Part shown: piece by piece, positions 6,001 through 9,000 of the stretch
Numbering within the stretch: the first letter of the stretch is position 1
Layout: each line of letters opens with the position of its first letter
IMG/VR virus record: IMGVR_UViG_2563366972_000006
DNA: 34,196 nucleotides
Direction: 5' to 3' (one strand)
DNA from: a virus
Taxonomy: Duplodnaviria; Heunggongvirae; Uroviricota; Caudoviricetes
Program-made: the position numbers

Positions 6001-9000
6001 AAATGAAGTGGTCTTTTAATACTATTGCTTTCTTCAACTTCTTTATCGCAAAGGTGGTAAGCACATTTTATTTTCTTAGTCATCACCATGACTCCGCCTT
6101 TACAGGTAAACCATCACGACCTAGGAAGACTTTAATCATGCGGTCAGTAATGCATGTTTTTGTGGTCAGGCTACGGATATAAAGTTTTCGCTTTTTAATA
6201 TTATTTGCCGAGGCAATATATGTCCGGCCTTCATGAAGAACATAATCGCCAGGAGTCACACACTGACGTGGTATTTCATCAGTTCCGAAGTGATGTGCAA
6301 TCATAATTATCTCCATTTTTACAAATGAACTTTGTTGATGCGGCGCCTGGTGCCTCCAGGTGACGTTAACCAGTTAACAATTAACGCCGGATAATCCACC
6401 CATAACACTGATGCTTTTTAACTGTTCCGCGTGCGCTGAGCCGCATTCACCGCATCACAAAATTCACTTTAAAAAGGGCGGACATCAGTCGAACTTCAAG
6501 AAAAACTGATGCCGCCAAGACTACACACAGCAGTGTTGTTATTCACAACCGGAGGCGCACTCCCACCATTTAAATTTAACAGACAAGACCGACTCTTTAT
6601 GGATATCGGAAATGCGCCTTCGTGTTGTGCGCCTGTCTTTTTACCACTTCAGGCTCGGTGGTATACTGGAGCTCTCACACAACCAGTAAGGAGAAATACG
6701 TGGTTACTTCTTTTTGCCCATTGTGCCTACATGATGCAGAAATTCTTATTCTTCGTGATCACAAACTGTTAATTTATACATGTCCAGAGCATGGTAAATT
6801 TGCTGTCACTAATGAAACGGATAAGCGAATCCGAAATTTACACGATCTTGCCGCAATGAGTTCAGCGCACAGGAAGATTCTGAATTCGCTTTCTTCGGAT
6901 GAAATGATGAGAGCTCAAGAAGAGGACGTCCTTCCTGCTCTAGTCCGAACAGTCCAATTTGATTACGAATCATAATTTCCAGCTCGATAACAATTGCAAT
7001 GCGGGATTTTTTAAAGGTGCCGCAATCAACTATGAATGAACCATCTGGGATGGATCCCAAAACACACTCTTCGCGCATCATTCACCTGAATTTTTTTTTC
7101 AACCAGCGATTCGCGCCAGCTTCGGTTTTAAACGTTTTGCTTTTGGTATAAGTCATGGCGGTGAACGTTCCATCCTGGTTGGGGAATACGCCGCACACCA
7201 GGGATTCGTTATTGCCGAGGTCGATTTTTTGCATTTTTCGCACCTCACATTTTGTTGTTGCGGATAGAGGCTTCTGCCTGCCAGAGATCCCAGTCGTTGC
7301 TGCGTAGAGCCTGTACAGCCTGGCTGTAAGTGATATCGCAACAATCCATCAAATACTGAACTACTTCGTAATGCACCATCTTATCTCTCCCCTTAACGCC
7401 GGGTGGCGGAACTGTTTGCTGAGAACACCGTGCGGTGTCTTGATGCAAACAAGATTAGTCATGGCTAACAATCAGGTCAAGTATTTTTGTTTGTCATGGC
7501 TAACATTTATGGCGGCAAAAAAGATAACACATTGATTGTGTTATCTTTTGTTTGTTCGTTGACGGGCTTTTAATAATTCTTCAAAGAGTTTGTTGAAATT
7601 TTTTACTCGGGCGCGCATCTCGGTGAGCTGAGCATCCTGTTCTGATTCAGGCAATGCATTAAAAAGCTCAAGGAGCTCGTGTTCTTTGGGGGATAAAGCA
7701 ACTGGCTCCTCAATAGGTGGTGATGGCTGCTTGTCTTCATCGCCAAATAGAATCCATGTTGGCGAGCACTGCAGTACATTGCTGAGGGCAAAAAGATTCT
7801 TCCCTGTAGGTTCGCTATCATCCCGTTCCCATTGTGAAACCGATACATGAGAAATTTTCAGGGCTTTAGCAAGAGACCTTTGGGTGTATTTGAGGTTTTT
7901 TCGGCGATACCTAATGCGTTCGCCAATGGTTAAATTTTTTGTATCCATAGTTAGCTAATGCTAAATCTTATTGACTATGTTTTTGTTAACATCTATTTTG
8001 TTAGCTATGACTAACAGGTAGGTGCTTTAAATGCTTAAAACTGACGCACTTTTGTATTTCGGTTCAAAAACAAAACTTGCACAAGCTGCTGGTATTCGTT
8101 TGGCTTCGCTTTATAGCTGGAAAGGGGAGCTAGTACCTGAAGGTCGCGCGATGCGCCTGCAAGAGGCATCTGGCGGGGAACTTCAGTACGACCCCAAAGT
8201 TTATGACGAATATCGTAAGGCAAAACGACCTGGGAAGGTGATTCATGAAAATCAGGCATGAGCACATCGAATCAGTGCTGTTAGCCCTGGCAGCCGAAAA
8301 AGGGCAGGCGTGGGTTGCTAACGCAATTACTGAAGAATATCTGCGCCAGGGGGGCGGCGAATTGCCCCTGGTACCAGGCAAGGACTGGAATAATCAGCAG
8401 AACATCTATCACCGTTGGTTAAAAGGTGAAACGAAAGCGCAAAGGGAAAAAATTCAGAAGCTGATCCCAGCAATTCTGGCAATTCTTCCGCGCGAACTGC
8501 GTCATCGACTCTGCATCTTCGATACCCTGGAACGCCGTGCATTACTGGCGGCGCAGGAAGCGTTGAGTACGGCAATTGATGCGCATGATGATGCAGTTCA
8601 GGCCGTTTACCGGAAAGCGCATTTCAGCGGCGGTGGGTCTTCCGACGATTCTGTCATTGTTCATTAAGCAAAAGTTTCCATGCTGGTTGTGCTTATTCTA
8701 AGCCACCTGGCAGCATCATACGGGGCAATTATGGCCGCATTACCATACATGCAACTGTACATAGCTGATTACCTGGCTGACACCATGCATTTGTCAGCAG
8801 AGGAACACGGTGCGTATTTGTTGCTGATGTTCAATTACTGGCAAACAGGAAAGCCAATACCCAAAAACAGGCTGGCAAAAATTGCCCGTCTGACTAACGA
8901 GCGATGGGCTGATGTTGAACCATCCTTGCGGGAGTTTTTTTGCGATAACGGCGACGAATGGGTGCATCTTCGGATTGAGGAAGATCTGACATCAGTCAGG

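Follow-up and report, generated by a model that had tools for sequence, protein, structure and literature searches.

In the window, the whole 34,196-nucleotide stretch of DNA that was analysed, the region around the repressor gene was read from its sequence as most probably (about 0.9) the DicA/DicC lysis-lysogeny switch of a Rac-family lambdoid prophage carrying a Qin-type dicA-dicC cassette. This immunity module is known and has already been characterised; it is an ordinary one and not a new addiction system. It belongs to the commonest immunity types of E. coli prophages, and the current understanding of such switches is left unchanged. In agreement, the PGAP annotation of the same three genes was dicA, dicC and YdaT family protein, and part of the query region was matched in 3011 out of 5426 complete E. 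coli genomes. The exact mosaic was not found among them, as none of the complete E. coli genomes covered at least 80% of the query.

The dicA-dicC immunity region and its predicted operators

The regulatory genes found in the window were the following:

7541-7948, minus strand: dicA, repressor of 135 aa; its N-terminal domain is HTH and P22 C2-like, and an S24 autocleavage domain is lacking
8031-8261, plus strand: dicC, 76-aa Cro-like regulator of the P22 Cro family, assigned by NCBIfam, Pfam and a structure match
8245-8667, plus strand: ydaT, 140-aa lambda-CII-like tetrameric HTH transcription factor, assigned by Pfam, PHROG and PDB
15431-15691, plus strand: rem homologue (antirepressor), 69% identical to K-12 Rem (E 8e-39)

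DicA gave 235.7 bits with NCBIfam NF007257 (cut-off 101) and was 93% identical to K-12 DicA; Pfam HTH_3 and Phage_CI_repr were detected with no peptidase domain, and the similarity to the N-terminal domain of P22 C2 (2e-19) was confined to residues 7-71. DicC reached 150 bits with NCBIfam NF007282 (cut-off 130) and 44.5 with Pfam P22_Cro (cut-off 30.2), matched the P22 Cro structure 1rzs (3e-6), and was 88% identical to K-12 DicC by tblastn. The earlier note had described an OL - repressor - OR - cro-like layout, and these NCBIfam scores, together with an OR region 96% identical to the dicA-dicC intergenic region of K-12 Qin, showed that this layout is right and is that of a DicA/DicC immunity region. 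The same note had named the divergent pair ydaS-ydaT. The second name was correct (PF06254, 98% identity to the Rac protein), and the first was not: this gene passed the P22_Cro threshold and scored 18.7 with Pfam YdaS_toxin (PF15943), below the cut-off of 30. Neither K-12 YdaS nor K-12 RacR had a tblastn match in the window at E ≤ 1e-3. The annotation is corrected to dicC instead of ydaS, and to a regulatory switch instead of a toxin pair.

The rem homologue was located 7.5 kb downstream of the immunity module. In Qin, Rem relieves the repression exerted by DicA, and dicBp is derepressed 165-fold (bioRxiv 10.1101/2023.04.14.536235). A DicA homologue was present in all 15 of 15 Rem-bearing phage records, and no rem was found in E275a, a Rac-like prophage of a different immunity type. 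Both members of the pairing between a non-cleavable repressor and the Rem antirepressor were found in the window.

Next to these genes, two exact copies of the 13-bp direct repeat GTCATGGCTAACA were confirmed downstream of dicA (7458-7470 and 7493-7505), along with the related near-palindromes already noticed in the divergent region, TGTTAGCTATGACTAACA at 7999-8016 and GTTAGCTAATGCTAA at 7950-7964. The operators and promoters read from this region were:

7453-7470: OL1 operator GATTAGTCATGGCTAACA, 10/12 to TGTTAG-N6-CTAACA, overlapping the putative leftward -10 and spacer
7488-7505: OL2 operator TGTTTGTCATGGCTAACA, 11/12, just upstream of the putative leftward -35
7949-7966: Oa operator AGTTAGCTAATGCTAAAT, with the core TTAG-N6-CTAA, directly next to the dicA start codon
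7974-7991: Om, degenerate middle operator of which only the right half (TTAACA) is present; lies within the rightward promoter's spacer
7999-8016: Oc operator TGTTAGCTATGACTAACA, a perfect inverted repeat (6+6) that adjoins the -10 and covers the predicted rightward start site
7971-7999, plus strand: putative rightward promoter (equivalent of dicCp and lambda PR), TTGACT, 17-bp spacer, TATTTT
7452-7480, minus strand: putative leftward early promoter (equivalent of dicBp and lambda PL), from sequence reading and conservation
7519-7549, minus strand: intrinsic terminator hairpin, a 13-bp perfect stem followed by a minus-strand T-run, overlapping the dicA stop codon

With up to two mismatches, the 13-mer was matched four times in 34 kb when 0.75 matches were expected, and four or more were never obtained in 100 shuffles. 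The TTAG-N6-CTAA core occurred three times in the window (0.21 expected), always in the immunity region, and none of 100 shuffles reached this count. When TGTTAG-N6-CTAACA was searched at 10/12 or better, three of the four window matches fell in the immunity region (0.9 expected per window), and a cluster of four matches (at least 9/12, within 600 bp) was seen in 2 of 300 randomisations, a test of the 18-bp consensus that is partly circular because the consensus was derived from the same sites. The repeats are best read as four putative 18-bp operators TGTTAG-N6-CTAACA, two on the left and two in the divergent region.

K-12 Qin, TK3046 and PhiR42_1 had all four sites, in unchanged positions; the E. 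coli 442/2 phage kept the two OR sites, and its record starts too near dicA to include OL. Across these relatives the half-sites were conserved and the 6-bp spacers varied. The perfect direct repeat of 13 bp is peculiar to the window because OL1 and OL2 happen to share the spacer TCATGG here; in K-12 the two spacers differ (CCATGA and CTATAG). What is conserved is the pair of inverted half-sites rather than the direct repeat. Phages with a different recognition helix did not have the operator motif: it was absent from the more distant DicA-like phages mEp460, phiES15 and a Klebsiella phage, and PPompW retained the TTAG-N6-CTAA core only. This pattern fits different immunity specificities and adds no covariation data.

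On the right side, Oa was identical in K-12 Qin and its core was kept in the 442/2 phage, and Om, which is named in the K-12 literature, was not conserved in that phage. Neither K-12 Oa, as judged by an in vivo assay, nor Om is bound by DicA when alone (PMC3441716). K-12 Oc, a 20-bp inverted repeat, is bound in vivo by DicA, and binding is lost when a single A is changed to C (PMC3441716); positions 7998-8017 of the window were identical to K-12 Oc TTGTTAGTCATAACTAACAA at 18 of 20 bases, including the A that is essential for binding. Strong sites are likely to be limited to Oc and, on grounds of similarity, to OL1 and OL2. The rightward promoter was the sole promoter-like match of the scan in 7300-8300, and its -35 was conserved even in the 442/2 phage.

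The predicted leftward promoter and the genes that it would control

The predicted leftward promoter has, on the minus strand, a -35 TTGACC (7480-7475), a 17-bp spacer and a -10 TAATCT (7457-7452). TK3046 and K-12 Qin have the same two hexamers as the window; the promoter was missed by the consensus scan because the -10 matches at only 3 of 6 positions. ATAAAT at 7512-7507, which adjoins OL2, was considered as another possible -10 and rejected since it is not conserved in K-12. When aligned with its K-12 and TK3046 counterparts, the OL region showed a mean column identity of 89%, and OL1 and OL2 kept their positions in TK3046, K-12 Qin and PhiR42_1, where the spacer of OL2 differs. An operator-bearing promoter equivalent to dicBp is present downstream of dicA, at what appears to be this position; in K-12, DicA represses dicBp 22-fold (bioRxiv 10.1101/2023.04.14.536235). 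The literature describes three operators per promoter. No further 18-mer of at least 9/12 was found in 7380-7560, and only two left-hand operators are convincing. The terminator folded at -14.1 kcal/mol (z = -3.8), a value that none of 200 shuffles equalled, and it insulates the leftward promoter from dicA read-through.

These data bear on the idea that the downstream repeats are a chance similarity, or a by-product of the terminator or 5' UTR, and that the divergent region alone is regulatory. The operator status of OL in this element is a sequence reading, the 13-bp identity of the two left copies is specific to the window, and the leftward promoter is weak by consensus, all of which would suit that explanation. 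Nevertheless, the repeat and core counts were matched in 0 of 100 shuffles, the left half-sites hold their position in three relatives while spacers and flanks change, and in K-12 the homologous region is dicBp, a promoter that DicA represses, making that explanation extremely improbable. Under the operator reading, the leftward transcript would include the following:

7245-7379, minus strand: ydaG-like, 44 aa, first gene of the leftward operon, 89% identical to K-12 YdaG by tblastn; PHROG 14709
7082-7243, minus strand: DUF1391 gene, ydaF/ydfA-like, second gene of the operon, Pfam DUF1391 1.8e-28, 94% identical to K-12 YdaF
6476-6529, minus strand: DicF-like sRNA, Rfam RF00039, full-length model match of 46.5 bits (E 1.1e-8), just under the gathering score of 48
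6083-6316, minus strand: kilR (FtsZ inhibitor), toxic cargo of the operon, NCBIfam NF008465 160 bits (cut-off 92); PHROG 294 Kil

The DicF-like sRNA is a candidate cell-division inhibitor under DicA control. K-12 DicB had no tblastn match in the window, and a dicF-dicB operon was not found as cargo. A disruption of recT was considered and rejected, as tblastn showed the gene to be intact. The toxic cargo under DicA would be mostly leftward (KilR and the DicF-like sRNA), with YdaT adding to it on the right, and derepression would release these three.

From these elements we infer how the switch would work, including DicA binding, its regulatory effects in this element and the exact promoter positions. 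DicA dimers would bind the 18-bp operators TGTTAG-N6-CTAACA. When bound at Oc, DicA would turn off the rightward promoter, leaving dicC, ydaT and the replication genes silent, and, by analogy with K-12, may stimulate the weak dicA promoter. OL1 and OL2 would bracket the leftward early promoter, and DicA bound there would silence an operon with the DicF-like sRNA, kilR and the recE/recT genes. DicC would act as a Cro-like counter-repressor. DicA cannot be cleaved via RecA, and induction would be expected to come via Rem or a stochastic flipping between DicA and DicC.

YdaT, its boxes and the question of addiction

YdaT scored 45.9 with Pfam PF06254 (cut-off 21) and matched PHROG 163, 'CII-like transcriptional activator' (2.8e-37), and the PDB entries 3c4r and 8bt1, the latter, from CP-933P, being a weak match (E 8e-6). 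It was 98% identical to K-12 Rac YdaT, with the DNA-binding residues H56, R57 and W58 invariant. One binding site was found at its gene:

8238-8255: YdaT-box GTGATTCATGAAAATCAG, spanning the ydaT start codon, at the right-hand junction of the swapped cassette

This site is an exact TGATT-N6-AATCA and was identical at 16 of 18 positions to the Rac box ATGATTCATGAAAATCAA, which has been footprinted with DNase and is required for the 29-fold activation of a reverse promoter (PMC11879457). In Rac, that promoter was placed within ydaS, some 190 bp away from the box. In the window, YdaT, as a CII-like protein, would bind the box that spans the ydaT start codon and drive antisense transcription towards the repressor gene; because ydaS has been replaced, the PRE-like function of this hybrid arrangement is putative. 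Rac YdaT also binds the racR-ydaS region, a second binding area whose counterpart here is the dicA-dicC intergenic region, and no YdaT-box-like site with one mismatch or fewer was found in that intergenic region.

Perfect TGATT-N6-AATCA boxes occurred three times in the window, with 0.07 expected, and all three keep their position in K-12 Rac and E275a. Box 1 lies over the ydaT start (PRE-like), box 2 about 50 bp upstream of xisR-intR (PI-like), and box 3 inside a ydaW-like gene (possibly PaQ-like). The two boxes beyond ydaT were not mentioned in the published YdaT papers that were consulted. In dicC-type loci as well as ydaS-type ones, the antisense strand has a TAYGAT hexamer at a distance of exactly 20 nt from the box at ydaT, and this -10-like sequence hints at a PRE-like promoter adjacent to the box. 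It is possible, at somewhat less than even odds, that YdaT is the hub of a lambda-CII-like regulon of three promoters in Rac-family prophages.

The earlier note had also suggested that the module may act as an addiction system, with the repressor guarding a toxic divergent pair, so that cells losing the prophage would be killed. The Pfam families are still called 'YdaS_toxin' and 'YdaT_toxin'; racR silencing in K-12 is lethal via ydaS/ydaT (PMC5700377, PMC5700373); and Rac YdaT, which shares 98% identity with the YdaT of the window, causes filamentation and death via rcsA when expressed in K-12 (PMC11879457). However, the first divergent gene is dicC rather than ydaS, and homology makes DicA, DicC and YdaT all regulators that bind DNA through an HTH. 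Toxin-antitoxin activity was not seen in an early test, and the genetic context gave Cro and CII roles (PMC5917428, PMC9986795), the roles now published for YdaS and YdaT, respectively (PMC5917428, PMC9986795, PMC11879457). Moreover, CP-933P YdaT is non-toxic, and in Rac the toxicity of YdaT is relieved by excision and whole-prophage loss rescues the cells (PMC11014345), so that no post-segregational killing takes place there. The supposed guard and toxins are divergently transcribed and would be lost together; the pattern typical of toxin-antitoxin genes, co-transcription with an antitoxin that directly neutralises its toxin, was not found, the repressor gene being divergent from dicC-ydaT, and the true type I toxin-antitoxin loci of the window, ralR/RalA and hok/sok, lie elsewhere. 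Loss of a prophage repressor is lethal in general, and, according to Jobling, the Qin repressor gene is also essential (PMC5917428). Given three HTH transcription factors with published Cro and CII roles, and the recovery of Rac cells upon excision, we did not retain the addiction proposal, which is very unlikely.

Cassette exchange and comparison with known systems

The window is a Rac-like prophage with a Qin-type dicA-dicC cassette in place of racR-ydaS. Four Rac-backbone loci, with three other immunity types, show homology to it from 8233-8239 onwards, and Qin-type homology ends at 8254; the right-hand cassette junction falls on the YdaT-box. It is a clean example of an immunity-cassette swap between Qin-type and Rac-type prophages at defined junctions. 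Under the possible three-promoter reading of YdaT, the ydaT box would also be a fixed right-hand boundary for the exchange of immunity cassettes (at least four of them, including racR-ydaS and dicA-dicC), and incoming cassettes would, therefore, be wired to the resident CII-like factor.

With K-12 Qin, the window shares DicA (93%), DicC (88%), the Oa/Om/Oc intergenic region (96%), homologous operators and promoter downstream of dicA, the same terminator hairpin, and a Rem antirepressor gene next to a hok gene. Unlike Qin, it has no dicB and carries the Rac-type kilR, a DicF-like sRNA and recE/recT; 3' of dicC it has an intact Rac-type 140-aa YdaT, whereas Qin has the truncated ydfX, and its OL spacers are identical to each other, in contrast to those of Qin. 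With K-12 Rac, it has in common the backbone on both sides (92-96% DNA identity), YdaT (98%), the YdaT-box over the ydaT start codon, the ydaU/ydaV replication genes and the kilR leftward operon. RacR and YdaS are replaced by DicA and DicC, and, therefore, immunity specificity and operators differ from those of Rac.

Regarding immC (c2/cro) of Salmonella phage P22, the DNA-binding domain of C2 aligned with the N-terminal domain of DicA and Cro aligned with DicC, and in both loci the genes diverge and the 18-bp operators are symmetric. Unlike P22 C2, DicA has 135 aa and no RecA-sensitive C-terminal domain, and the sequence of the operator half-site differs. The 442/2 'Rac' phage (MN652886.1) and PhiR42_1 have the same order as the window, dicA - dicC - ydaT (140 aa) - ydaU - ydaV, plus rem; the YdaT-family protein of PhiR42_1 is longer, and the DicA of 442/2 is only 59% identical. 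Finally, the paaR2/ydaS-ydaT region of CP-933P from E. coli O157:H7 also has a YdaT family protein as the CII equivalent, about 30% identical to Rac YdaT (PMC11879457), which binds TTGATT-N6-AATCAA near the junction of the cro-like gene and ydaT (PMC9986795). Unlike the window, CP-933P has PaaR2 as its repressor and YdaS as its Cro-like protein.

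Genes of the immunity region

The stretch 7458-8667 had been read as an immunity region with a repressor gene between operator-like repeats and a divergent ydaS-ydaT pair. This layout was correctly recognized, and it is that of a known kind of prophage immunity region. The genes found were the following:

7541-7948, minus strand: dicA (NCBIfam 235.7 bits, cut-off 101)
8031-8261, plus strand: dicC (NCBIfam 150, cut-off 130)
8245-8667, plus strand: ydaT (Pfam PF06254; PHROG "CII-like transcriptional activator")
3' of ydaT: a ydaU-like gene (DUF1376), then DnaC-like replication genes

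The DicA of the window was 93% identical to K-12 DicA; the P22 C2 DNA-binding domain aligned with its N-terminal domain (2e-19, residues 7-71 only), and no peptidase S24 domain was found in it with Pfam. The dicC product was 88% identical to K-12 DicC and was matched by the P22 Cro structure 1rzs (3e-6), and Pfam placed P22_Cro over the threshold and YdaS_toxin under it (18.7 vs. 30). K-12 YdaS and RacR, used as tblastn queries, had no match in the window at E 1e-3 or below. The sub-threshold YdaS_toxin score, the lack of a K-12 YdaS match, and the identity to DicC ruled out YdaS as the first divergent gene. Of the named pair, ydaT stood, its product being 98% identical to K-12 Rac YdaT with the DNA-binding residues H56, R57, and W58 intact, while the supposed ydaS is dicC. 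Solved relatives of YdaT are 3c4r and 8bt1. When 7200-8700 was used as a query, 3011 of the 5426 complete E. coli genomes gave a partial match, and PGAP names the top matches dicA, dicC, and YdaT family protein. Moreover, the order dicA-dicC-ydaT(140 aa)-ydaU-ydaV is already in the deposited phage sequence MN652886.1. The region is one already known, in which the earlier note misnamed one gene and added one unsupported functional extrapolation.

Operators, promoters, and the predicted switch

The 13-bp repeat GTCATGGCTAACA was recovered in two exact copies (7458-7470 and 7493-7505), and the near-palindrome TGTTAGCTATGACTAACA was present as described; within the latter, on the opposite strand at 7999-8011, lies a copy of GTCATGGCTAACA with one mismatch. 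With up to two mismatches, GTCATGGCTAACA matched four times across the 34 kb, where 0.75 matches would be expected; none of 100 shuffles reached four. The symmetric core TTAG-N6-CTAA occurred three times in the window (0.21 expected), always in the immunity region. Sites were scored against the consensus TGTTAG-N6-CTAACA, with a maximum of 12:

7453-7470: OL1, downstream of dicA, 10/12
7488-7505: OL2, downstream of dicA, 11/12
7949-7966: Oa, in the divergent region (OR), 9/12
7999-8016: Oc counterpart, in the divergent region (OR), 12/12

Four such sites clustered within 600 bp in 2 of 300 randomized windows, a test that is partly circular because the consensus was built from these same sites. 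The comparative evidence is stronger than the count statistics: the four sites were positionally matched in TK3046, K-12 Qin, and PhiR42_1, and the phage from E. coli 442/2, whose record begins too near dicA to show OL, kept both OR sites with a DicA merely 59% identical. The outer half-sites were conserved, whereas the central six bases were free to vary (TCATGG, CCATGG, CCATGA, CTATAG, GGAATA), indicating that the perfect 13-bp direct repeat is an accident of this window, where OL1 and OL2 have one common spacer. From these alignments, the functional unit of the operator appears to be the inverted repeat, not the direct repeat.

The sole promoter found by the scan in 7300-8300 was the rightward TTGACT-17-TATTTT (7971-7999), whose -10 directly adjoins Oc. 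We infer a leftward promoter, TTGACC-17-TAATCT, on the minus strand at 7480-7452, which the scan missed because of its weak -10; both hexamers were invariant in three loci, OL1 overlies the -10 and spacer, and OL2 is just upstream of the -35. A minus-strand hairpin at 7549-7519, with a 13-bp perfect stem followed by a T-run (-14.1 kcal/mol, z = -3.8), should terminate dicA transcripts ahead of this promoter.

By analogy, the mechanism in the window is most likely that described for K-12 DicA/DicC. There, DicA binds Oc (TTGTTAGTCATAACTAACAA) in vivo, repressing dicC and activating dicA; one A-to-C change abolishes binding, and Oa and the degenerate middle site Om alone are unbound (PMC3441716). 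The window Oc agreed with that of K-12 at 18 of 20 positions, the critical A included. Also in K-12, DicA represses dicBp, the promoter downstream of dicA, 22-fold; it has no RecA cleavage site and does not respond to mitomycin C with induction, the antirepressor Rem relieves its repression 165-fold, and together DicA and DicC form a switch with bistable behaviour (bioRxiv 10.1101/2023.04.14.536235). A counterpart of Rem was found:

15431-15691: rem homologue, product 69% identical to K-12 Rem

It adjoins hok/sok, as in Qin, and Rem was absent from E275a, a Rac-like prophage of another immunity type. All 15 Rem-bearing records of the phage collection had a DicA homologue, these representing about four independent lineages, as 11 are near-identical PPompW records. 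Two genuine type I toxin-antitoxin loci lie in the window, ralR/RalA sRNA (207 bits, 1557-1928) and hok/sok (102 bits, 14735-15060). Between the hok terminator and rem is TTGTTGTAT, a perfect tandem repeat of 7.6 copies (15226-15293), and genes for tRNA-Thr(TGT) and tRNA-Gly(TCC) (17538-17691), also present in the E275a prophage, lie upstream of the lysis genes.

Cassette junctions and YdaT-boxes

Rac-like sequence extended up to 7421 and resumed from 8233-8239 (92-96% to K-12 Rac, phage 683R6, Rac-SA53, and E275a), and 7388-8254 was Qin-like (96% identical to TK3046, 88% to K-12 Qin), indicating that a dicA-dicC cassette took the place of racR-ydaS of Rac. On the right-hand side, a single breakpoint was common to four loci with a Rac backbone, which represent three further immunity types (racR-ydaS in two loci, the Rac-SA53 type in one, and the E275a type in one): the 18-bp YdaT-box GTGATTCATGAAAATCAG (8238-8255) across the ydaT start codon. 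The junctions of the exchangeable cassette, left at 7388-7421 and right at 8233-8254, were fixed and common to Qin-type and Rac-type.

The YdaT of Rac, an HTH factor that forms tetramers, leaves a footprint on ATGATTCATGAAAATCAA over its own start codon; through this box it activates a reverse promoter 29-fold, yielding more repressor, which the authors of that study equate with lambda CII/PRE (PMC11879457). The YdaT homologue of CP-933P, an E. coli O157:H7 prophage, binds TTGATT-N6-AATCAA and has also been termed a CII equivalent (PMC9986795). The window box matched the Rac footprinted box at 16 of 18 positions. The Rac reverse promoter was placed within ydaS, a gene that is replaced in the window. 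On the antisense strand (8207-8255, minus), TACGAT stands exactly 20 nt after the box in every dicC-type locus, and ydaS-type Rac loci have TATGAT at the same distance, though the cro-like genes are unrelated. This arrangement may be a box-adjacent PRE-like promoter, a hint rather than a demonstration.

Perfect TGATT-N6-AATCA palindromes occurred three times in the window against 0.07 expected: at the ydaT start (8239-8254, the known box), about 50 bp upstream of xisR-intR (1505-1520), and within the ydaW-like gene (10680-10695). All three keep their position in K-12 Rac and E275a, and they are reminiscent of lambda, in which three promoters (PRE, PI, and PaQ) depend on CII. The YdaT literature cited here makes no mention of the two extra boxes.

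Leftward operon, addiction, and known systems

Leftward of the operators, the order was as follows:

ydaG-like gene, then ydaF-like gene
6663-7099: 437-bp segment in the sieB slot of Rac
6476-6529, minus strand: DicF-like sRNA (Rfam RF00039, 46.5 bits, E 1e-8, full-length match)
kilR
ydaE, racC, recE, recT, ralR, xis, int (homology with E275a and K-12)

The 437-bp segment was matched by neither Rac nor Qin of K-12. In or around it, a plus-strand ORF (6622-6975) carries a CxxC...CPEH motif, gave no hit in the PHROG search, and is partly overlapped by a minus-strand ORF (6809-7081). The DicF-like sRNA, slightly below the RF00039 gathering score of 48, lies upstream of kilR, where the homologous K-12 Rac stretch carries kilS.

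The proposal that the repressor guards a toxic divergent pair, making the module an addiction system, was unsupported. It draws on Pfam family names that include "toxin", on the lethality of racR silencing via ydaS/ydaT (PMC5700377, PMC5700373), and on the lethality of Rac YdaT expression through rcsA activation (PMC11879457). However, the first divergent gene here is not ydaS, and the module encodes transcription factors; toxin-antitoxin activity was tested for directly and not found, and genetic context favours regulators (PMC5917428; PMC9986795). Moreover, CP-933P YdaT is non-toxic, and Rac cells escape YdaT toxicity by excision and loss of the prophage (PMC11014345), so that cells which lose the element are rescued, not killed. 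It is a general property of lysogens to depend on their repressor, the division-inhibiting cargo (KilR, DicF-like sRNA) is mostly leftward, outside the divergent pair, and the bona fide type I toxin-antitoxin loci, ralR/RalA and hok/sok, sit elsewhere.

What is mildly new is confined to the three conserved YdaT-box palindromes and to the YdaT-box as a cassette-exchange junction. Judged by its sequence, the element belongs to the Qin-type DicA/DicC immunity family and would work like it, agreeing with that family at every sequence-level criterion tested; it departs from the Rac module in the RacR-YdaS part and keeps the Rac YdaT and its box.
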